A DNA stretch of 36,266 bases from the NCBI GenBank assembly GCA_903824515.1, contig CAIJXA010000079.1, positions 1-36,266 of the forward strand, given 5' to 3'. Within the stretch, counting starts at the first letter, position 1, and the number at the start of each line of letters is the position of its first letter. The position numbers and the translations under genes are program-made. Below, piece after piece: positions 5,708-34,732 of the stretch. This stretch comes from an uncultured bacterium. GTDB lineage: Bacteria > Patescibacteriota > Minisyncoccia > Moranbacterales > GWC2-37-73. A model generated the notes under the pieces. That model made no database searches. It saw only the letters and a list, made by a program, of their open reading frames with translations, and had not been told where the DNA came from.

Positions 5708-5844
5708 AAAGAGTATTAATACCCCCGAGGCTTGCCCCGAACCCTTCAGGCTCACAAGGCAAGACAGCTCACTCGTGAGCGACGTGTCAAGCCTCGTAGG
5801 CTAAAATACCTTTTGCTGCGTCGCTCACTTCGCTAGATAATAAA
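5708..5844. repeat. Family F palindromic element, copy 2
   Basis: Colinear with 1-141; has a 28-bp hairpin insert at 5764-5791. Confidence 0.75.
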
Positions 5845-9340: not shown

Positions 9341-9349
9341 ATGTTTATC

Positions 9350-9420
9350 GTTCTAATTGTTATAATTGTTCTATGCGTTCTAGTTGTTTTTTCGTTTACA
9401 ACAGTTACAACATTTAGAAC
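9350..9420 (-). repeat. Family A 9-mer-periodic hairpin, copy 1 (rpsE-rplO)
   Basis: gttctaattgttataattgtt...acaacagttacaacatttagaac; 5 homologous copies. Confidence 0.85.
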
Positions 9421-9430
9421 ATAACTACCT

Positions 9431-11048: not shown

Positions 11049-11060
11049 ACTATTTTTATC

Positions 11061-11130
11061 GTTCTAATTGTTATGATGTTTTGACATGTTCTAGTTGCAT
11101 CTCATCTACAACAATTACAACGATTAGAAC
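11061..11130 (-). repeat. Family A hairpin, copy 2 (rpsH-rplF)
   Basis: gttctaattgttatg...acaacaattacaacgattagaac. Confidence 0.85.
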
Positions 11131-11147
11131 ACTAGCACGTTTATTTA

Positions 11148-11552: not shown

Positions 11553-11586
11553 ATTCTAATTCTTTATCCTAATTATATATAAATTA

Positions 11587-11663
11587 ACCGATACGAATCT
11601 ACGAATTAAATGCGAATCTACGAAACTTTTCGTATGTGCGCTTTCGTAGCGCGCTTTCGGATA
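11587..11663 (-). repeat. Family B rod-like element, copy 1 (rpsN-rpsH)
   Basis: accgatacgaatctacgaa...tgcgctttcgtagcgcgctttcggata; abuts the rpsN stop. Confidence 0.85.
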
Positions 11664-11849
11664 CTACCAACTACTCTTTTTAACTCCGGGCAATTCACCT
11701 TTGCTTGCTAACTCGCGAAAGCAAATTCTGCAAATATCAAATGCTCGAAGATAACCATGTTTTCGACCACAACGCCAACACCTTCGAACTTCTCGTGTCG
11801 AAAATTTTGGTTTCTTCTCTGCTCTAGCTTGGGTAGATGTTTTTGCCAT
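11664..11849 (-). CDS. rpsN: 30S ribosomal protein S14 (type Z)
   Basis: RCWRCGR...CRICFRE...GVKKSSW. Confidence 0.97.
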
Positions 11850-11866
11850 ATTTCTTTAGTCAATAC

Positions 11867-12415
11867 TTATTCGCTTTTTAGCGGAAATCCTAATAATTTA
11901 AATAATTCCAATCCTTGTTGCTGTGAAACTGCGCTTGTTGAGATTGTTACCTGAAGTCCGAAAGTATGCTTCACGCGTTCTGGGGAAATCTCGGGAAAAA
12001 TCAAATGTTCTCTTATTCCGATATTGATATTTCCGCTTGTATCAACTGACTTTCTCCCAATTCCCTGAAAATCTCGAGTTCTTGGAAGGGTTGCCACAAT
12101 CAATCTGTCGATGAATTGCCACATTCGAGCTCCTCGCAAAGTTACTTTCACACCAACTTCCATTCCTTCTCTAGTCTTGAAACCTGCGATAGCTTTCTTA
12201 GCTTTCGTTTTAACTGGTTTTTGTCCGGTAATTACAGTCAAAGAATTTACTACTTCCTCTATTTTATCATTTTCTTTCACAATCTTTCCAATGCCAACAT
12301 TGACCACGACTTTGAGAATTCGAGGCACCGCCATGACACTTTTATATCCGAATTTCTTTTGCATTTCAATTGCAACTGTCTTCGCATATTTTTCTTTTGC
12401 TGGAATTATTTTCAT
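11867..12415 (-). CDS. rplE: 50S ribosomal protein L5
   Basis: ITGQKP, KVTLRG, PRTRDFQG, IFPEI. Confidence 0.98.
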   Translation of the reverse strand: MKIIPAKEKYAKTVAIEMQKKFGYKSVMAVPRILKVVVNVGIGKIVKENDKIEEVVNSLTVITGQKPVKTKAKKAIAGFKTREGMEVGVKVTLRGARMWQFIDRLIVATLPRTRDFQGIGRKSVDTSGNINIGIREHLIFPEISPERVKHTFGLQVTISTSAVSQQQGLELFKLLGFPLKSE

Positions 12416-12425
12416 ATAATTTATC

Positions 12426-12495
12426 GCTCTAATTGTTATAATTGTTCTATGCGTTCTAGTTGTCTTTCATTTATAACATTTACAACAGTTAGAAC
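12426..12495 (-). repeat. Family A hairpin, copy 3 (rplX-rplE)
   Basis: gctctaattgttataattgttctatgcgttctagttg...tacaacagttagaac. Confidence 0.85.
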
Positions 12496-12507
12496 ATTAA
12501 AACGTTT

Positions 12508-12813
12508 CTAGATTTCCTTGCCACATTTCTTACAAACACGTACTTTTTTTTCTTTAACAAAAGCATAGGATGTTCTCGTTGCTTTACCACATGAAGGGCA
12601 AATCAACATTGCATTTGAAGCATCAAATGGGGCTGCTATTTCAACTCGCTGTCCCTTCTCACCCTCCCTGCGAGCTTTTTTGTGCTTCTTTACAATATTC
12701 ATTTTTTCGACTACAATTTTTCCCTCGCTCGGAACAGTTCGCAAGACTTTTCCCTGCTTACCCTTGTCCTTTCCGGCAATTTTTTTTACGAGGTCTCCTT
12801 TTTTAATTCTCAT
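12508..12813 (-). CDS. rplX: 50S ribosomal protein L24
   Basis: IKKGD..IAGKDKGKQG KOW motif. Confidence 0.97.
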   Translation of the reverse strand: MRIKKGDLVKKIAGKDKGKQGKVLRTVPSEGKIVVEKMNIVKKHKKARREGEKGQRVEIAAPFDASNAMLICPSCGKATRTSYAFVKEKKVRVCKKCGKEI

Positions 12814-12824
12814 AATATTTTAGC

Positions 12825-12897
12825 GTTCTAATTGTTATAATTGATCTACTTGTTCTAGTTGTTTTCACTCACTTATAACAATTACAACAGTTAGAAC
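12825..12897 (-). repeat. Family A hairpin, copy 4 (rplN-rplX)
   Basis: gttctaattgttataattg...tataacaattacaacagttagaac. Confidence 0.85.
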
Positions 12898-12908
12898 ATT
12901 ATTTCAGT

Positions 12909-13274
12909 CTACAATACTTCCGGTGCCAATGAAACTATTTTAGCAAATCCTTTTTCACGAAGCTCCCTAGCTATTGGTCCGAAAATACGAGTTCCTTTTG
13001 GTTCCTTACCATCAACAATCACAGCAGCATTTTCATCAAAACGAATATATGAACCATCTTTTCTTCTATAAGCCTTTCTCTGTCTGACTACAACTGCTCG
13101 AATCTTATCTCCCTTTTTAACTAAGCCTCTTGGTTCAGCTGATTTTACACTGCAAACAATAATATCACCAACGTAGGCGTAACGTCTGCGACTGCCACCA
13201 AGAATCTTGAAGCATTCGATTACTTTTGCTCCCGAATTGTCTGCTGCTCTTAATCTTGTTTCTGCCTGAATCAT
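12909..13274 (-). CDS. rplN: 50S ribosomal protein L14
   Basis: [21 protein letters not shown]. Confidence 0.98.
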
Positions 13275-13283
13275 ATAGTTTTT

Positions 13284-13343
13284 GTTCTAATTATTATAAT
13301 TGTGCTACACGTTCTATCTGTTTTCATTTACAACAATCAGAAC
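13284..13343 (-). repeat. Family A hairpin, copy 5 (rpsQ-rplN), one unit shorter
   Basis: gttctaattattataattgtgctacacgttcta...tacaacaatcagaac. Confidence 0.8.
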
Positions 13344-13348
13344 GACGT

Positions 13349-13588
13349 TTATGCTAATGTGTGATTTTTATCCTTGCTCAATGGCCGACACTGCACAAAT
13401 TCTACCGAATCTCCAATCTTGTGCTTATTTTCACTATCATGAACCTTGTATTTTTTGGTTGAGCGATACTTTTTCAGGTATTTTGGATGAGTTTTAAGAG
13501 ACTGCACAGCAACAACTATAGTCTTATCCATTGAGTCACTTACAACCTTACCCTTTTTCGTTGCTAATTTTTTAGTAGTGTTTGTCAT
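13349..13588 (-). CDS. rpsQ: 30S ribosomal protein S17
   Basis: GKVVSDSMDKTIVV, HPKY, CRPLSKDK. Confidence 0.97.
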   Translation of the reverse strand: MTNTTKKLATKKGKVVSDSMDKTIVVAVQSLKTHPKYLKKYRSTKKYKVHDSENKHKIGDSVEFVQCRPLSKDKNHTLA

Positions 13589-13639
13589 ATCCTAATTTTT
13601 ATCCAAATTACATTCTAATTATATCTAAACTTATATATT

Positions 13640-13828
13640 TTATGCCTCTAATTCTTTTAAAATAGTTAGTGCTCGAGCAATATCCTTTTTAATCGCCCGA
13701 TACTCTCGATGATTTTTAAGCTGACGAGCTGCAATATCAAATCTGAGCTTAACTGCTTGAGTTTGTTTCTCAGCAATAAGCTTCTTGATCTGCTCAATAT
13801 TCAAATCTCTAATTTCCAAAATTTTCAT
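13640..13828 (-). CDS. rpmC: 50S ribosomal protein L29
   Basis: LRF...QLKN...KKDIARALT; synteny. Confidence 0.93.
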   Translation of the reverse strand: MKILEIRDLNIEQIKKLIAEKQTQAVKLRFDIAARQLKNHREYRAIKKDIARALTILKELEA

Positions 13829-13837
13829 ATAATTATA

Positions 13838-13912
13838 ACCGATACGAAACTATGAATTTAGTGCGAATTTACGAAATTTCTAATGTGCGCTTTCGTAGTG
13901 CGCTTTCGGATA
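13838..13912 (-). repeat. Family B element, copy 2 (rplP-rpmC)
   Basis: accgatacgaaactatgaa...tgcgctttcgtagtgcgctttcggata; abuts the rplP stop. Confidence 0.85.
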
Positions 13913-14326
13913 TTATTTTTCCTTAACAACAAACTTCGTTTTAATGCATAGTTTGTGGGATGCAAGCCTCATAGCCTCCTTAGCAACTGATACATCAATG
14001 CCGTCCATTTCAAACAATACCCTGCCTTCTTTTATCTTTGCTACGAAATGATCAACACTACCTTTTCCTTTGCCCATAGGTGTTTCATCACCTTTTTTAG
14101 TCATTGGCTTGTCAGGAAAAATACGTATCCAAATCTTTCCACCTCTTTTAACATACCTTGTCATAGCTCTTCGAGCTGCTTCAATCTGACGAGCTGAAAT
14201 CAATCCTGAGGTTGCTGCCTTAAGTCCAAAGCTACCGAAACTTACGGTATTACCCTTGGTTGCAACACCTCGGATTTCTCCTCCTCGGTGGATTTTTCTG
14301 TGTTTTACTTTTTTTGGCATTAACAT
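13913..14326 (-). CDS. rplP: 50S ribosomal protein L16
   Basis: [30 protein letters not shown]. Confidence 0.98.
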
Positions 14327-14368
14327 ATGCGTAGACGTAATTCAAAATGTAAATATATAATCCCTCAA

Positions 14369-15022
14369 TTATTCATTTTCCTTATTAAAAACTTCTCCCT
14401 TATAAATCCAAGTCTTAATTCCAATTGCTCCATAAGTTGTGAATGCTGTAGCTTTTGCGAAATCTATATCAGCCCTGAGTGTATGAAGGGGGACCGTTCC
14501 TCTTGAAAGCCACTCTCGTCTCGCCATTTCAGCGCCACCCAAACGTCCGCAAATTTCAATCTTCACTCCTTTGACAATTCTGTTTTTCTCGACTGTGTCA
14601 AGGGTTGATTTTAATATTCTTCTGAAAGGCACGCGTTTTTCCAATTGTTCAGCCACGCTTTGAGCAACCAAGGAAGCATTTTCTTCAAACTGACGAACCT
14701 CCTGCGCTTCAATTTTTAAATCAATCTTTTTTCCTGCAAAAAATTTGTCCTTAATAATCTTGCTAATATCGCTAATTCCGGTCCCGCCTCTTCCGATCAA
14801 AACTCCAGGTCTGGATGTTTTCAAAATCAATTTCAAAGTGTTAGCGCTGCGTTCAATTTCAACTTCTGCAATCGCTGCACTTTTATATTTTTTCTTGATA
14901 AACTCCCTGATCTGAATATCTTCTTTGAGCTTCTTGGTATAATCCTTATCTGAAAACCACCTTGATTTCCAAGTGTTAGTAATACCTATGCGTAATCCAG
15001 TTGGGTTGACTTTATGTCCCAT
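14369..15022 (-). CDS. rpsC: 30S ribosomal protein S3
   Basis: MGHKVNP, GRLGGAEMAR, PLHTLRADID. Confidence 0.98.
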   Translation of the reverse strand: MGHKVNPTGLRIGITNTWKSRWFSDKDYTKKLKEDIQIREFIKKKYKSAAIAEVEIERSANTLKLILKTSRPGVLIGRGGTGISDISKIIKDKFFAGKKIDLKIEAQEVRQFEENASLVAQSVAEQLEKRVPFRRILKSTLDTVEKNRIVKGVKIEICGRLGGAEMARREWLSRGTVPLHTLRADIDFAKATAFTTYGAIGIKTWIYKGEVFNKENE

Positions 15023-15027
15023 ATCTT

Positions 15028-15140
15028 ATTTCAATTTCTAATTTCTAATTTCTAATTTCTAAACAATTTCTAATTTCAAAATTTTAAAATTGAAACATTG
15101 AAAATTGATTGAAAATTGAAAATTGAAAATTGAAAATTTT
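15028..15140. repeat. Family C heptamer hairpin (aatttct)n...(ttgaaaa)n, rplV-rpsC spacer
   Basis: Tandem aatttct units facing tandem ttgaaaa units; nearly identical to 24751-24866. Confidence 0.85.
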
Positions 15141-15214
15141 ACACTCTCTTTTTAATTAAAATTAAACTACAACAATACACTATAAATTATTCACAAATAC
15201 ATTTAACAACTATA

Positions 15215-15775
15215 TTATACTCCTGATTTTCTTTGAAAAACTTTATTCAAGAAATTACCATCTGGCTGCTGTCCTTTCTTTGGAACTTCTTTTTTTATAG
15301 CAGCTTTCTTTGCAGGAACCTTACTGTCAGTTACAACCTCCGCATCCTTCACAGCTTCTGTCTTGGCCGCTTTTTTGCTAACCCTTTCTTTCTCTGCTCG
15401 TTCCTTTTCAAGTTGTTCTTTTGATTTACGGTTCTTTCCTTCAACTCTTTCTTCCAGCTCCAGATCAATCAGAGATGTTCTTTTCAAAATCAACGTTGCT
15501 CTTCCTTGAGCCCTTGGAAGCCATCGTTTCAAACTTGGTCCTCCGCCAACTTGGATGTTACTGACAAATAAATTATCTTTGTCTAATCCAAAATTGTTTT
15601 CACCGTTTGCAATGGCACTTCTCAGAAGTTTTTCGAGTGGATTGCTGGTCTTTTTAACAAGATTTTGCAACTGAATCAATGCTTGAGAGCAGTTCATCCC
15701 CACAATACTGCGAGTGACCAATCTGACCTTTCGAGGAGACATTCTTAAATTGTTGAGTGAAGCTTTAACTTTCAT
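15215..15775 (-). CDS. rplV: 50S ribosomal protein L22 with long C-terminal extension
   Basis: SPRKVRLV, SAIAN, PRAQGRA; ~75 aa K/E/A-rich tail. Confidence 0.96.
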   Translation of the reverse strand: MKVKASLNNLRMSPRKVRLVTRSIVGMNCSQALIQLQNLVKKTSNPLEKLLRSAIANGENNFGLDKDNLFVSNIQVGGGPSLKRWLPRAQGRATLILKRTSLIDLELEERVEGKNRKSKEQLEKERAEKERVSKKAAKTEAVKDAEVVTDSKVPAKKAAIKKEVPKKGQQPDGNFLNKVFQRKSGV

Positions 15776-15787
15776 ATAATCATTAAT

Positions 15788-15856
15788 CATGGAACATGGA
15801 GCATGGAACGTGCGTCCCTTTGTATTCTGCTCTATGCTTTATGCTCTATGTTATGT
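15788..15856. repeat. Family D heptamer hairpin, rpsS-rplV spacer
   Basis: catggaacatggagcatggaac...ctctatgctttatgctctatgttatg. Confidence 0.8.
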
Positions 15857-15862
15857 GGTTTA

Positions 15863-16207
15863 CTATTTTTTCTTTCCTGCTGCTGGCTCAGCCTTTGCTG
15901 CTTTTGCGGCATCTTGAGCTTTCTGTTTTGCTGCTGATTCTATTTCTTTCTGCATCTTACCTCCATGTCTGACAAATTTACGTGTTGGTGAAAATTCTCC
16001 AAGTCTATGTCCAACCGTTTCTTCCGTGATATAAACTGGTGTAAATTCTTTTCCATTGTGAACTCCAAAAGTAAAACCAATCATTTCAGGAGTAATGGTG
16101 CAAGCCCGAGCCCAAGTTTTAATTGTTCCTTGACCTGGCGTTGCGTTTAAAATTTTCTTGGTAACGCGCTCATCCACGTAAGGTCCTTTCTTTAAACTTC
16201 TTGACAT
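15863..16207 (-). CDS. rpsS: 30S ribosomal protein S19
   Basis: [25 protein letters not shown]. Confidence 0.98.
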
Positions 16208-16215
16208 ATTTTTTT

Positions 16216-16293
16216 ACCGATACGAATCTACGAATTAATTACAAATCTACGAAATTTTTCGAATGGGCGCTTTTGTGGTGCGCTTTTCGGATG
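16216..16293 (-). repeat. Family B element, copy 3 (rplB-rpsS)
   Basis: accgatacgaatctacgaattaa...gtgcgcttttcggatg; abuts the rplB stop. Confidence 0.85.
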
Positions 16294-17124
16294 CTATTTT
16301 TTGACTCTTCGTTTAACAATAAATTTATCACTATATCTTTTCTTCTTTCTGGTTTTCTTTCCTAAAGCAGGCTTACCCCATGGCGTTTTCGGATGCTTCA
16401 AGCCGATTCCTTGTCTTCCTTCTCCTCCTCCATGTGGATGATCGACAGGATTCATTGCTGATCCACGAACTTCTGGCCGCTTACCCTTCCATCTGTTTCT
16501 TCCAGCTTTTCCAAGTTTTTCAGCACTATGTTCAAAATTACTTACTTTTCCAATAGTTGCGTAGCATTCTTTACTAACCAACCTTATTTCATTAGATGAC
16601 ATTTTCAATTGAGCCATCTTTCCGTCAATAGCCATCAAAATTGCTCCTGAGCCTGCACTACGTGACAACTGACCTCCCTTTCCAACAACCAACTCAATGT
16701 TTGAAATAATGGTTCCTGAGGGAATATTTTTAAGGACAGTTCTGTTGCCTTTCTTGATTGGAGCATTTTCGCCAGAAACAATTTCCACTTCCTGCTTCAT
16801 ACCTTCTGATGCAAGCACGTATCGTTTATCTCCATCCTTGTATGATACCAACGCAATAAGAGCGCTCCTATTTGGATCTCTTTCAATTGCAATAATCTTT
16901 CCAGGAATATCAAATTTCTGCTGCTTAAAATCCACCAATCGATAACGTCTCTTGTGCCCGCCTCCCTGATGCCTGGTTGAAATTTTTCCATGGCTACGTC
17001 CGGCCTTTTGAGTCATTGGAGCAAGCAAGGATTTTTCAGGCTTTTTACTGGTAAGATCGTCCGGTTTTACAATCGACATATTTCGCCTTCCAGCTGTATT
17101 TTTTTTGTATACTTTAATTGCCAT
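16294..17124 (-). CDS. rplB: 50S ribosomal protein L2
   Basis: DPNRSA, MNPVDHPHGGGEG. Confidence 0.98.
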   Translation of the reverse strand: MAIKVYKKNTAGRRNMSIVKPDDLTSKKPEKSLLAPMTQKAGRSHGKISTRHQGGGHKRRYRLVDFKQQKFDIPGKIIAIERDPNRSALIALVSYKDGDKRYVLASEGMKQEVEIVSGENAPIKKGNRTVLKNIPSGTIISNIELVVGKGGQLSRSAGSGAILMAIDGKMAQLKMSSNEIRLVSKECYATIGKVSNFEHSAEKLGKAGRNRWKGKRPEVRGSAMNPVDHPHGGGEGRQGIGLKHPKTPWGKPALGKKTRKKKRYSDKFIVKRRVKK

Positions 17125-17129
17125 AATAT

Positions 17130-17237
17130 ATCAGTAATCAGTAATCAGTAATCAGTAATCAAGTATTTAAATACTTTCACCGCTCATTGTATTCTGATTG
17201 TTTTATTGTCTCTTGTTTCTTGTCTATTGAATATTGA
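17130..17237. repeat. Heptamer repeat/hairpin (atcagta)x4, rplW-rplB spacer
   Basis: atcagta tandem facing a degenerate 7-periodic tattctgattgttttattgtctcttgtttcttg arm. Confidence 0.7.
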
Positions 17238-17621
17238 TTAGGCTCCTTGGAATAATTCAATCTTATCTCCCTCTTTCAAAGTCACAACCGCTTTTTTGAT
17301 TGCAGATTTACAGCCTTCAAATCTACCGTAAACTCTTTTCTTTGGAATAAAATTCAAAACCGCAACTTTCTGAACACTTACTCTATAAAAACCCTCGATT
17401 GCTTTCTTTACTTGCGCCTTAGTAGCATCTTGCGTAATCCTAAAAACATATTTATTCTCTGCAAGTCCAGCGTGTGATTTTTCAGTAATCCAAGGTTCCA
17501 CAAGAACGCGATAAGCAATATCAGCATTTTCAGCGGTTTGAGGAGCAGCCTTCTTAGCTACTTTTTTAACAACCACTTCTTTTTTTGAAACATTTTCTTT
17601 TTTCTCTTCTATTGCTGCCAT
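17238..17621 (-). CDS. rplW: 50S ribosomal protein L23 with N-terminal extension
   Basis: PWITEKS, NKYVF, KKAVVTL. Confidence 0.95.
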   Translation of the reverse strand: MAAIEEKKENVSKKEVVVKKVAKKAAPQTAENADIAYRVLVEPWITEKSHAGLAENKYVFRITQDATKAQVKKAIEGFYRVSVQKVAVLNFIPKKRVYGRFEGCKSAIKKAVVTLKEGDKIELFQGA

Positions 17622-17641
17622 ATATTTAATAAATCTCTAAA

Positions 17642-18271
17642 TTATTTTACAAATTTTTCTTCCAAAAATGCAATCGATGCCTTACTTAAAAGCACATTCT
17701 TATTATTGAGCAAATCATATACATTCAAATCCTTTGTTTCAATATTTGTAATTTTAGGAATGTTTCGACTAGCAATTGCAAGTGCTCGTTCTCCCTCAGT
17801 AAATGAAACTAGTGTTTTCCCAGCCAGTTTAAGGTTTTTAATAACCTCAGCAAAAGCTTTAGTTTTCGCATCCTTAAGTTCAAGCACATCAACTGCTACT
17901 AGGGTTCCGCTTCGAAGTTTCTCGCTAAGCGCAATTCTTACTGCCTTTTGCTTCATTTTCTTGTTTACATCTCTTTTAAAATTCCTATCACTTGTTGGAC
18001 CAAAAGCAATTCCACCACCCTTCATTACAGGATTTCTCTTTTGTCCTTGCCTGGCACTTCCAGTTCCCTTTTGTTTGAAAGGTTTCTTGCCAGTTCCGGC
18101 AACTTCACTTTTATCCTTAGTGTTAGCAATTGAAAATCTTTGATTACCAGCAATCACCATAAAAACCTGGTGTAATAGTTCATCATTTGATTTCACAGCA
18201 AAAACCTCATCTGAGATAGTCAAATCCTCTATTTTTTTTCCTTCTAGATTGTGCAGGGCAATTGTAGCCAT
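17642..18271 (-). CDS. rplD: 50S ribosomal protein L4
   Basis: KKPFKQKGTGSARQG, GGGIAFGP. Confidence 0.97.
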   Translation of the reverse strand: MATIALHNLEGKKIEDLTISDEVFAVKSNDELLHQVFMVIAGNQRFSIANTKDKSEVAGTGKKPFKQKGTGSARQGQKRNPVMKGGGIAFGPTSDRNFKRDVNKKMKQKAVRIALSEKLRSGTLVAVDVLELKDAKTKAFAEVIKNLKLAGKTLVSFTEGERALAIASRNIPKITNIETKDLNVYDLLNNKNVLLSKASIAFLEEKFVK

Positions 18272-18330
18272 AATATTCGCTTCGCTAAATTATAAATTTC
18301 AAATTTTAAATTTCAAATTATTGTATTTTT

Positions 18331-18891
18331 CTATCCGTGAACCTCAACGATTCTTCCAACAACTCCAGGCACCGAGCCAAGAACGCCAATGAGATTTTTT
18401 TCAATATTCAAATAAACAACTTTCACGTTCTTCACTGATTTCCTTTTTCCACCCATGCGTCCAGCCATTCTTTTTCCTTTGATAACATGCTGTGGTTGTT
18501 GAGCACCGATTGATCCAGGAGCTCGTAAATCATGCTTATGTCCATGCGAAGCAGGAGAACCAGCAAACCCATGACGCTTCACACCTCCCTGAAATCCCTT
18601 AGCTTTAGCGATACCACTAACTTTAACCAAATCTCCAATTGCAAAATTTTCAACGGTAACCTTATCACCAACTGCCAATGCCACTACATCTTCACTGCGA
18701 AATTCTTTCTTGTGAGTAACTTTTTTTGTCTTCTTAGTTGCAAGTTGAACAGCGCTATAGCCATCTCTCTGCGACGTTCTCACGATAGACACAGTGTTTG
18801 GCTCACATTCAATCAAGGTAATATTAAGAGCTCCCTGTTGCTGATCATACAGAGTTGTCATCCCCATTTTTTTTCCTAAAATATTTTTCAT
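18331..18891 (-). CDS. rplC: 50S ribosomal protein L3 (short form)
   Basis: ILGKKMGMT, KGFQGGVKRH, PGSIG, GKRMAGRMG; start reset to ATG 18891. Confidence 0.96.
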   Translation of the reverse strand: MKNILGKKMGMTTLYDQQQGALNITLIECEPNTVSIVRTSQRDGYSAVQLATKKTKKVTHKKEFRSEDVVALAVGDKVTVENFAIGDLVKVSGIAKAKGFQGGVKRHGFAGSPASHGHKHDLRAPGSIGAQQPQHVIKGKRMAGRMGGKRKSVKNVKVVYLNIEKNLIGVLGSVPGVVGRIVEVHG

Positions 18892-18918
18892 ATCTGTAAT
18901 TATACTTATATTTCGAAC

Positions 18919-19000
18919 AAAAAACTGGCTTCTCAGCCAGCATGGTCCGAGGAGCAATTCCTCGACTTAGCTAATTGAGTATCCAACTTTGCAGTAGGAC
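18919..19000 (-). promoter_or_regulatory. Structured rplC leader ending in an intrinsic terminator (candidate attenuator)
   Basis: Hairpins UCCUACU-GCAA-AGUUGGA, GAGGA-AUUGC-UCCUC and CUGGCU-GAGA-AGCCAG-U6. Confidence 0.6.
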
Positions 19001-19034
19001 TTTAACTAGTTTTTTTCTTTTTTCTAACTTATCT

Positions 19035-19063
19035 ATTTTAAATCAATTCTCAAATTTATGCAA
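19035..19063 (-). promoter_or_regulatory. Sigma70-like promoter upstream of rplC
   Basis: TTGCAT-17 nt-TAAAAT. Confidence 0.55.
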
Positions 19064-19067
19064 GCCC

Positions 19068-19143
19068 CGACGATATTTACCATTCAAACATACCTACTAA
19101 TTTGTGATTCGTATGGTAGCTTTCGTAGTACGCCTTTTACATG
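19068..19143 (-). repeat. Family B element, diverged copy 4 (after rpsJ)
   Basis: ttcgtatggtagctttcgtagtacgccttttacatg abutting the rpsJ stop. Confidence 0.55.
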
Positions 19144-19476
19144 CTACATCTTTATTTCGATATCTACACCAGCTGGCAAATCAAGTCCGGTCAGACTTTC
19201 AATTGTCTTTGCTGTTGGATCCCAGATATCAACTAGACGCTTGTGAATCCTCATTTCATATTGCTCACGAGCATCCTTATGCACAAAAGTTGATTTGTTA
19301 ACAGTCACCTTGTGAATTTCTGTCGGAAGAGGAACTGGGCCAGTTATCCTAGCGCCCGTTCTTTCAGCAGTTTCAACAATTTTTCGCGCTGACTGATCAA
19401 TCACCTTATTGTCATAAGCTTTGATCTTAATTCTGATTCTTGTGGATTGTCCTGATTCTATTTTTTTCGAAGCCAT
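19144..19476 (-). CDS. rpsJ: 30S ribosomal protein S10
   Basis: [27 protein letters not shown]. Confidence 0.98.
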
Positions 19477-24084: not shown

Positions 24085-24092
24085 AAAAAATT

Positions 24093-24204
24093 AATTTCTA
24101 ATTTCTAATTTCTAATTTCTAATCAAATTCCAATATTCCAATGTTCAAAACATGCAGGAATTCAAAATTTATTCAAAATTCAAAATTCAAAATTCAAAAT
24201 TTTA
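24093..24204. repeat. Family C heptamer hairpin, rpsG-fusA spacer
   Basis: (aatttct)x4...(ttcaaaa)x4. Confidence 0.8.
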
Positions 24205-24273
24205 ATATTATTTTTTTTGATTATAAAACAAAGATAGAAACCCCAAACTAGCAGGAGTTTCTATCGCAAGAAT

Positions 24274-24741: not shown

Positions 24742-24750
24742 ATTTTCCTT

Positions 24751-24866
24751 AATTTCTAATTTCTAATTTCTAATTTCTAAATAATTTCTAATGCTTTAAT
24801 TTCAAAATTGAAAATTTAAACATTTTAAAATTGATTGAAAATTGAAAATTGAAAATTGAAAATTTT
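24751..24866. repeat. Family C heptamer hairpin, rpsL-rpsG spacer
   Basis: (aatttct)x4...(ttgaaaa)x4. Confidence 0.85.
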
Positions 24867-24929
24867 AAGCCCTAATCTTTAATTATAATCTTATTTAATT
24901 CAAATAATTCTCTTAAATCTGCGACAGAA

Positions 24930-25352: not shown

Positions 25353-25367
25353 ATTACGCTTCGCTTT

Positions 25368-25440
25368 AATTTCTAATTTCTAATTTCTAATTTCTAATCA
25401 ATTTTCAATGATTAAATTTCAAAAACCAAAATTGAAAAAT
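25368..25440. repeat. Family C heptamer element in the rpsL 5' leader
   Basis: (aatttct)x4 aatcaattttcaatg...aaattgaaaa. Confidence 0.75.
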
Positions 25441-25560
25441 ATAAGTTCATTTTTAAATTAAGCATAGCCTGCTGGAAATCCGTCCAGAACGAAACGGACC
25501 TCAATTGACTACTTTCTAAAACAAAACAGCCAAAAAATTGGCTACTTGACTAACAAAAGT

Positions 25561-25589
25561 AGTTTACCTAACTTTTGCAAATATGTCAA
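25561..25589 (-). promoter_or_regulatory. str operon (rpsL) promoter
   Basis: TTGACA-17 nt-TAAACT. Confidence 0.7.
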
Positions 25590-25683
25590 ACGAAGTGCTT
25601 GTTAATTAATACTTAATTTGTAATCACACTATGATTGCAAGTTACTATTATATTTGAAAAGAGATAATAAGCGAAAAAATGAT

Positions 25684-32776: not shown

Positions 32777-32847
32777 TCGGGATGCGGGGAATTGAACCCA
32801 GGCTACAAGACCCCTGGCCTTGCGTACTGCCATTATACTACATCCTG
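32777..32847 (-). tRNA. tRNA-Pro, atypical (anticodon AGG in standard register; no encoded CCA)
   Basis: CAGGATG-TA-GTAT-AATGGCA-GTAC-G-CAAGG-CCAGGGG-TCTTG-TAGC-CTGGG-TTCAATT-CCCCG-CATCCCG-A; C1:G72, A73, G35, G36. Confidence 0.8.
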
Positions 32848-34650: not shown

Positions 34651-34732
34651 AAATGGTATTGATACCCCAACGAGCCCCTGACTCTTCAGACTCACGAGGT
34701 AGGATATGCCACTAGTTTTGCTAGATAATAAA
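34651..34732. repeat. Family F element, degenerate copy 3
   Basis: ggtattgatacccc...cttcagactcacgagg...gctagataataaa. Confidence 0.65.

Follow-up and report, generated by a model that had tools for sequence, protein, structure and literature searches.

Ribosomal-protein operons belong to the most tightly packed and most conserved stretches of bacterial DNA. Why, then, do repeats fill the spaces between their genes in a bacterium with a genome of 1.26 Mb? The question arises from a contig of 36,266 nucleotides (C79; GenBank CAIJXA010000079.1), hereafter called the window, in a metagenome-assembled genome (MAG) of an uncultured member of the Moranbacterales (G000; 137 contigs, 38% G+C, 99% complete). 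MAGs of Candidatus Moranbacteria (Moraniibacteriota), in the Parcubacteria group, are its closest named relatives. The metagenomes with this locus among public sequencing runs come from lake and freshwater samples. The window carries the str-S10-spc cluster of ribosomal-protein genes at 8.9 to 25.4 kb on the minus strand, and all genes from rpsL to rplO could be named with NCBIfam. A first-pass annotation had described in this cluster a rod-like element, Family B, that begins exactly at the stop codons of rpsN, rplP and rplB and, in diverged form, of rpsJ; it suggested either site-specific insertion at TA(A/G) or a function tied to the terminating ribosome. As described below, Family B is a two-module, orientation-fixed, replaceable repeat inside operons that is conserved in place and is not a stable RNA rod.

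Registration of Family B between stop and start codons

The window contains three full copies of Family B, 75 to 78 nt long and all on the minus strand. Copy 1 (11587-11663) lies between rpsN, encoding a type Z S14 protein, and rpsH and directly follows the TAG at 11664-11666; copy 2 (13838-13912) lies between rplP and rpmC, directly after the TAA at 13913-13915; and copy 3 (16216-16293) lies between rplB and rpsS, directly after the TAG at 16294-16296. Each consists of a 5' half behind the stop codon, module X (approximately 11627-11663, 13878-13912 and 16256-16293), and a 3' half ahead of the next start codon, module Y (approximately 11587-11626, 13838-13877 and 16216-16255). X amounts to approximately 2.6 13-mers in tandem, each reading RC-TAY-CGAAAGCGC, whereas Y comprises two 19-mers, each with two TTCGTA words, and ends with ATCGGY. 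The DNA reads TAG|TATCCGAAAGCGC at the end of rpsN, TAA|TATCCGAAAGCGC at the end of rplP, TAG|CATCCGAAAAGCGC at the end of rplB and TAG|CATGTAAAAGGCGT at the end of rpsJ, exactly as the first-pass annotation had given it. The rpsJ copy (19108-19143, minus strand, directly after the TAG at 19144-19146) is a diverged X-type half without Y; it belongs to repeat family D10 (79%), and its E value in an nhmmer search with the three-copy profile was only 0.28. A well-kept X, also flush with the TAG, follows rpsJ in G002, and none is present there in G005 and G003.

On the side of the downstream gene, copy 2 ends 9 nt short of the ATG of rpmC (13826-13828) and copy 3 ends 8 nt short of the ATG of rpsS (16205-16207). 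Copy 1 is followed by a conserved rpsH leader of 34 nt (11553-11586, minus strand) that lies outside the repeat. The last 25 nt or so of this leader are nearly invariant in nine genome pieces from three genera, and TATAATTAGGATAAAGAATTAGAAT together with the first 45 or so coding bases of rpsH is almost invariant in genus g1, G018 and G015, whatever repeat family lies upstream.

The three copies, which form repeat family D6, are clearly related: BLAST with copy 1 found the other two at E values of 1.5e-20 and 2.8e-20, and BLAST E values for the repeat across the genome ran from 1e-20 to 1e-35. The nhmmer profile gave 1.5e-25, 1.2e-23 and 2.2e-22 in the 1.26-Mb assembly, values that match by construction, since the profile was built from the same copies. 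A 12-mer alone was not above chance, with six matches at up to two mismatches, 2.7 expected and 8 of 100 shuffles reaching six. We also considered a coding role for the element and rejected it, because copy 1 is open in frame for 34 codons past the TAG, copies 2 and 3 are not, and the indels differ between copies. An alternative genetic code was likewise rejected: TGA is only 1 of the 44 stop codons in the window, but genome-wide it ends 191 of 1,005 open reading frames (ORFs) of at least 150 aa, and the code is standard.

Does the registration extend beyond the window? Family B matches are present in 22 of the 33 genomes of the taxonomic family, and 16 distinct full-length copies from 10 genomes in five genera of this one Moranbacteria family were aligned. 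The first-pass annotation had implied a fixed stop offset in other copies as well, a check set beforehand, and indeed the offset from the upstream stop codon was 0 in 11 of the 16, 2 nt in two and 3 nt in two more; a single copy had no stop codon within 6 nt. The base before YATCCG is G in 15 copies and the one preceding it is A in 14, which argues that the repeat proper begins on the AG of TAG. Counted from this AG, 15 of the 16 copies begin between positions -2 and +1 of the stop codon end. The 3' end (ATCGGT) lies 6 to 10 nt from the next ATG in 12 copies and 34 nt from it in two (the rpsH copies, with the leader between), and the remaining two have no downstream ORF. Orientation relative to the flanking genes is identical in all 16. 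Twelve follow ribosomal-protein genes of the S10 and spc operons, at seven different junctions; further sites lie between two nuo-like genes, after nusA and before a gene for an M50 peptidase (one each). Short native spacers alone would give a looser registration with the stop codon. The reported registration is therefore real and extends to relatives, but it is not one-sided, given the spacing to the ATG, and it is not private to Family B either.

The last point emerged from a comparison of homologous junctions across 13 genome pieces, 220 spacers in all. Most operon spacers are word arrays of other families, with a partly inverted second arm and word periods of 7 to 13 nt; at least 10 such families fill most spacers of the S10, spc and str operons. 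Where spacers of different junctions are homologous, with boundaries taken from a strict BLAST run, the homology begins within -6 to +3 of the stop codon in 59 of 126 cases and ends within -6 to +3 of the ATG in 64 of 126. Registration of whole spacers is thus general and not peculiar to Family B. A TAG stop precedes 74 of the 162 spacers of at least 60 nt (46%) versus 9 of the 58 shorter ones (16%), with a within-junction odds ratio of 3.8 among kin that are not independent. In at least one other family, that between rplO and secY, the array takes the stop codon as its first word.

Two of the other families were noted in the window. The second family, built from GTTCTAA and TTAGAAC words (repeat families D3, D5 and D9), occupies 9341-9430, 11049-11147, 12416-12507, 12814-12908 and 13275-13348 and folds far better than shuffles (z scores of -2.9 to -4.8); its copy between rplX and rplE is identical to that of G005 at 92 of 92 positions, and the third codon positions of the flanks are only 61 to 62% identical. 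The third family (15023-15214, 24085-24273, 24742-24929 and 25353-25683) precedes the ATG of rpsC, fusA, rpsG and rpsL with four AATTTTCA-type words followed, directly 5' of the ATG, by four TTAGAAAT words, and its predicted folds were no better than shuffles in two of the three copies tested. Unrelated to the word arrays is a GC-rich repeat of approximately 41 nt (D11, of the CCCCAGGGCAAGCCCTGGACCCTTCAGGCTCACGAGGCAAG type) in long spacers at 16-56, 5723-5763 and 34663-34703. In G000 as a whole, co-directional spacers have a median length of 120 nt and 68% are at least 60 nt long, unusually loose for 1.26 Mb and presumably due to word-array repeats; ORFs cover only 78% of the genome in a simple codon-usage model.

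Exchange and conservation of the spacers

Most ribosomal-operon junctions of this bacterium contain 70 to 190 nt of exchangeable repeat. Congeners whose L2 proteins are 96 to 98% identical hold different families at the same junction, and a single junction carries three to five different families across congeners, or 2 to 51 nt; where copy 3 lies between rplB and rpsS in G000, the congeners G005 and G003 have an unrelated 51-nt spacer. Other genera often have only 1 to 30 nt at the same junctions, some junctions within the genus are also short and unrelated, and the native spacers of relatives (1 to 30 nt) are without Shine-Dalgarno-like sequence. Between rpsS and rplV, G001 has a full Family B copy and G005 a 48-nt deletion derivative. 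For insertion at TA(A/G), as put forward in the first-pass annotation, neither a clean empty site nor a target-site duplication could be demonstrated, and congeners lacking the element differ in the whole spacer. TA directly follows the element in 5 of the 16 copies and AAAA in 8, and the flanks are A/T rich and of low complexity. The only terminal inverted repeats are CCGA/TCGG (4 to 5 nt), and both arms consist of words in tandem.

Where a junction holds one and the same family in different congeners, in contrast, the spacers are 82 to 100% identical, although congeners differ at 37 to 56% of four-fold degenerate sites in the flanking genes. The Family B spacer between rplP and rpmC is 95% identical in G000 and G003, that between rpsN and rpsH approximately 90% identical in G000 and G004, and the mean column identity over the 16 copies is 89%. 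The upstream coding flank returns to normal divergence. Since the kept copies change far less than four-fold sites, they are not neutral in place. Moreover, the first 25 to 70 coding bases of the downstream genes are almost invariant across genera, and together with the conserved spacers this indicates that the whole initiation region is under constraint at the nucleotide level.

How is turnover to be reconciled with conservation? Family B might be purely selfish, a non-autonomous mobile DNA of the kind of miniature inverted-repeat transposable elements (MITEs), repetitive extragenic palindromic (REP) sequences and their paired form (REPINs) or bacterial interspersed mosaic elements (BIMEs), which an enzyme acting in trans inserts at the ends of ORFs, the flush position following from its choice of site, and which brings the cell no benefit. 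We regard this as possible but rather unlikely. It would account for presence, absence and replacement among congeners, for the deletion derivative, for nested insertions and for the high copy number in one genus combined with a patchy taxonomic spread: 12 of 301 sampled genomes of the class carry the pattern, and none carries a reversed control pattern. Near-identity of non-orthologous copies across genera fits as well. The identity of 90 to 95% between orthologous copies is, however, unlike that of decaying junk, and the failure to see a target-site duplication, the minimal inverted termini and the single orientation of all 16 full copies relative to the genes also speak against it.

The repeats leave traces in assemblies, too. 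Contigs from public runs break at repeat-bearing spacers of the window (9358/9381, 12434/12457, 15060/15112 and 17135/17159), and two short contigs (locus L053, G001 C68, 1-130; locus L037, G035 C122) end a few dozen bases past Family B and join rplB to the 3' flank of another junction, which is likely an assembly join through the repeat. With contigs of several MAGs and public runs breaking at the repeats, assembly and annotation of genomes of the candidate phyla radiation (CPR) are affected.

Modules X and Y outside the ribosomal-protein cluster

The two halves of Family B differ in their distribution. In G000, X was found in the window and at one site on contig C50 only, whereas a profile search for Y gave 58 matches at E values of up to 1, 31 of them at 1e-6 or better. 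Of these 31 strong copies, 3 are located within ORFs (uvrC has two of them), 2 at contig edges and 26 in spacers whose neighbours on both sides were called. In 18 of the 26 intergenic copies, the distance from the ATCGGY end to an ORF boundary is at most 10 nt: 12 face a co-oriented start, and 6 a stop codon, with the gene reading into the reverse complement of Y, rc(Y). Uniform placement in the same spacers (47 to 360 nt) would give 3.5, and none of 200,000 simulations reached 18. The polarity of Y is no packing artefact. In the 12 genes with Y ahead of them, it ends 1 to 9 nt before the start codon. Neighbours of Y are housekeeping genes, among them ispH, recA, pyrG, efp, nusB, ftsW, scpA, rplK, grpE, mreB and cysS, and their full-length Pfam matches make the called starts credible. 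A Y regulon was considered and dropped, because the adjoining genes share no function.

Y also occurs in a long form, rc(Y) and Y separated by 140 to 158 nt, at three loci (C15 5653-5888, C15 7660-7877 and C119 1510-1745), where it fills the co-directional spacers ahead of recA, efp and nusB. Family B is the short form: its post-stop arm, which has diverged, directly adjoins the pre-start arm. A longer copy with an ORF, which the first-pass annotation had proposed to search for, has only one candidate, on another contig (C60 8714-9282, locus L159): an inverted Y after the mreB stop codon is followed by a gene for a 130-aa PF13366 protein (GxxExxY, PD-(D/E)XK-like), three tandem Y and a glycosyltransferase gene. 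Two more PF13366 genes are present in G000.

Inside uvrC (C37 4824-6554, loci L158 and L161), the same word families as in the spacers form several hypervariable in-frame insertions. The frame encodes 577 aa in G000 and 519 to 590 aa in six of seven members of the genus; it has 450 aa in G003 and 417 to 450 aa in other genera. Y and other word families are thus translated in linker regions of UvrC, for example as TDSKLRNQYESTNK, and in one congener a GC-rich mini-palindrome is nested in the Y copy of uvrC. Turnover of Family B, its decay by deletion, the approximately 30 dispersed, polar Y per genome and the copies in uvrC are the behaviour of mobile or recombining DNA. For purely selfish DNA, the in-frame copies and the polar hugging of starts and stops, which resembles a rule at the DNA level, are favourable, as are the genes for Y1-type transposases in G000: an IS200-like gene at C112 9438-9791 (E value of 5e-36) and two weaker ones at C78 16570-17140 and C19 21330-21870, which by sequence look like genes for REP-associated tyrosine transposases (RAYTs). 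However, these two are flanked by GC-rich palindromes of their own (of the GGGACTAAGTCCC and TTAGGGACTAAGTCCCCAATTGGGGACTTAGTCCCTAA types; the genome has 17 occurrences of the 13-mer core) and not by Family B or Y; the flanks of Y and Family B copies at the ORF-facing end share no common motif; and searches of this 99% complete MAG found neither a DDE transposase (PF01609, PF13358) nor TnpB (PF07282).

If the same end of a double-stranded module is used towards both starts and stops, a role of the DNA itself comes to mind. An array of binding sites for a protein, for example a roadblock, nucleoid or recombination protein, could mark ORF boundaries, with the polarity arising from oriented binding. 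Use of one module both ways is natural for DNA and not for RNA, the conservation is at the sequence level without covariation and with variable positions recurring at the same columns, and words 1 and 3 as well as 2 and 4 of Y are spaced 19 bp, approximately two helical turns. In G002 and G006, moreover, related CGAAT word arrays are found immediately ahead of the sigma-70-like S10 promoter. We nevertheless consider such an array improbable: at least 10 unrelated word families swap at one junction, which would call for many proteins or none, the genes adjoining Y have no function in common, and no candidate protein was identified.

Could Y be a promoter for transcripts with short leaders or none, or could Family B contain an intrinsic terminator? 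The position of Y immediately before the real starts of 12 genes would suit a promoter, and TTCGTA-N17-TAGTTT in Y could pass for weak -35 and -10 boxes. A consensus scan, however, revealed no sigma-70-like promoter and no terminator-like site inside the three copies, and the totals for the region were not above those of shuffles (35 promoters versus 29.4 ± 6.0; 5 terminators versus 6.3). The organism has canonical promoters, as seen from TTGCAT-N17-TAAAAT before the S10 leader, which relatives conserve, and in the post-stop orientation Y would fire antisense into rplK, grpE, mreB, rpsR and cysS. Contigs from RNA libraries pass through the copies, which is weak evidence in the same direction. 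We therefore give little credence to a promoter or terminator.

The S10 promoter itself lies at 19035-19063 on the minus strand, and a terminator-like hairpin, GCTGGCTGAGAAGCCAGT with a T-run, at 18924-18941 on the same strand, upstream of rplC. Promoter and leader are kept in congeners and two further genera, and the stretch from 18924 to 19063 looks like the leader and attenuator of the S10 operon. The start listed for rplC, a TTG at 18957, probably lies too far upstream.

A possible stop-to-start hand-over, and known systems

The explanation that we favour, albeit with less than even confidence, is that Family B is mobile-derived intercistronic DNA that was tolerated and then kept only in a geometry preserving the hand-over from stop to start. 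In operons with native spacers of 1 to 30 nt and no Shine-Dalgarno sequence, the upstream stop codon would hand over the ribosomes that translate the downstream gene. An insertion would then survive only with its first unit beginning on the stop codon and its last unit ending approximately 8 nt before the ATG. Its arms are complementary in part, with CCGA/UCGG at the base and CUACGAA/UUCGUAG further in; they might loop the insert out, or the terminating ribosome might open them. Once fixed, the element would join the translation initiation region of the next gene and be kept by purifying selection. In this model, Family B is proposed to work like a translational-coupling hairpin. The 3' end of the 16S rRNA is canonical (CCUCC) in congeners, the 16S gene being missing from the G000 MAG; pairing of the pre-start words with 16S rRNA was tested and discarded, since only 3 of 25 seven-mers had a complementary site (one each) in congener 16S, which is about chance.

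The rod of the first-pass annotation would have provided such a hairpin, or else a structured regulatory RNA with a function of its own, for instance a processing site or the leader of a ribosomal-protein gene. Its helices can indeed be drawn: CCGA/UCGG, CUACGAA/UUCGUAG and CGAA/UUCG appear in the RNAalifold consensus of the 16 copies, which has 20 pairs in five short helices, a base joining both ends and an energy of -10.2 kcal/mol. Operon spacers as a class also fold better than shuffles, with a mean z score of -2.1 in the window and -2.45 for 159 spacers, and other spacer families reach -3 to -5. Neither energy nor covariation, however, supports the rod of Family B. On the gene strand the three copies gave z scores of -0.65, -1.24 and +0.14, that is, no extra stability, and seven Family B copies folded at 20°C gave -1.4 to +0.7. 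The covariation term was +0.16, with a compensatory change in 1 of the 20 pairs. No Rfam covariance model matched the element at its gathering score, the only match in the window being a tRNA at 32777-32847. Moreover, the same element at seven ribosomal-protein junctions and in a nuo-like operon is no gene-specific leader. A structured regulatory RNA is thus very unlikely indeed.

The same folding data weigh against the pairing step of the hand-over model, which is without computational support, and several other observations weigh against the model as well. The path from stop to start in the predicted fold was no shorter than in shuffles, at 8 to 17 versus 12.6 to 17.5 for Family B (mean of 12.9 versus 15.1 for the 159 spacers); loop-out judged by exterior path length was set aside as non-discriminating, since shuffles are equally compact. 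A fold joining stop and start above chance and with compensatory changes was not found, whereas the geometry, with an offset of 0 and approximately 8 nt to the ATG, fits. Y occurs as a lone module, and in many cases its 5' partner is an arm from another family with which it cannot pair; reversed Y hugs stop codons where no start follows. A coupling hairpin explains neither the lone nor the reversed copies. Three RNA libraries, all from one sample, gave contigs that span all three Family B copies, but this evidence of transcription is weak: the contigs share breakpoints with DNA contigs of the same sample and their depth is flat, so DNA carry-over is possible. Finally, the copies of G038 and G035, from different genera and different loci, show a single difference over 76 bases, and high identity could come from recent exchange between lineages.

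A wider reading takes in Y. This CPR lineage may punctuate its genes with polar word-array modules, the same end of which faces starts and stops of housekeeping ORFs; in operons, post-stop and pre-start modules would form cassettes such as Family B, which would replace Shine-Dalgarno initiation by a hand-over or boundary-processing signal and which are exchangeable between species and conserved in place. We consider this unlikely; if true, it would mean that domesticated mobile DNA has given rise to a layer of signalling at gene boundaries that was not described before. Should the repeats be no more than tolerated, they illustrate how mobile DNA can colonise essential operons through a position precisely between stop and start; if the cell uses them, they point to a signal for initiation or coupling in CPR bacteria that is independent of Shine-Dalgarno pairing.

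How does Family B compare with known systems? No account of such repeats in Moranbacteria, Parcubacteria or CPR bacteria was found among the titles and abstracts covered by a literature search. Coupling hairpins of phage MS2 and Escherichia coli operons have their base at the upstream stop codon, mask the next start and are opened by the terminating ribosome; they are, however, gene specific and neither repeated nor exchangeable, and computation does not support the fold of Family B. Integron attC sites are likewise imperfect palindromes (57 to 141 nt) that reach from a stop codon to just before the next ORF, but Family B flanks fixed ribosomal-protein genes instead of cassettes and has no RYYYAAC/GTTRRRY cores (no search for an integrase was made). 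Tandem interspaced guide RNA (TIGR)-Tas arrays adjoin tas genes. Rickettsia palindromic elements resemble the uvrC copies, in which Y and other words are translated in frame, whereas most copies described here are intergenic and hug ORF boundaries with fixed polarity.

The nearest known systems are, besides the Rickettsia elements, small interspersed repeats. Pneumococcal BOX, Neisseria Correia and enterobacterial repetitive intergenic consensus (ERIC) elements are modular, intergenic, co-transcribed and present or absent between strains, but the inverted termini of Family B are only 4 to 5 nt, no TA duplication was seen and no partner transposase was found. Family B resembles a MITE in copy number and in presence or absence, and does not in terminal inverted repeats or a related transposase. 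From REP sequences, it differs in the absence of a stable GC-rich stem, in having only three full copies per genome, in arms of tandem sub-repeats and in the orientation fixed by the genes. REPs within approximately 15 nt of a stop codon affect translation, although a literature search for this effect found nothing. The association of REPINs with RAYTs is defined, in a preprint, by a RAYT gene flanked by the same REP (bioRxiv 10.1101/2021.07.10.451892); here, other palindromes border the RAYT-like genes, and X of Family B complements Y only loosely. The REPs, BIMEs and REPINs of enterobacteria and pseudomonads nonetheless resemble the present repeats: they are short extragenic mosaics of inverted modules, often behind stop codons in operons, co-transcribed and vertically persistent, and a REPIN consists of two inverted copies around a spacer, as do rc(Y) and Y at three loci of a genome that also carries Y1 transposase genes.

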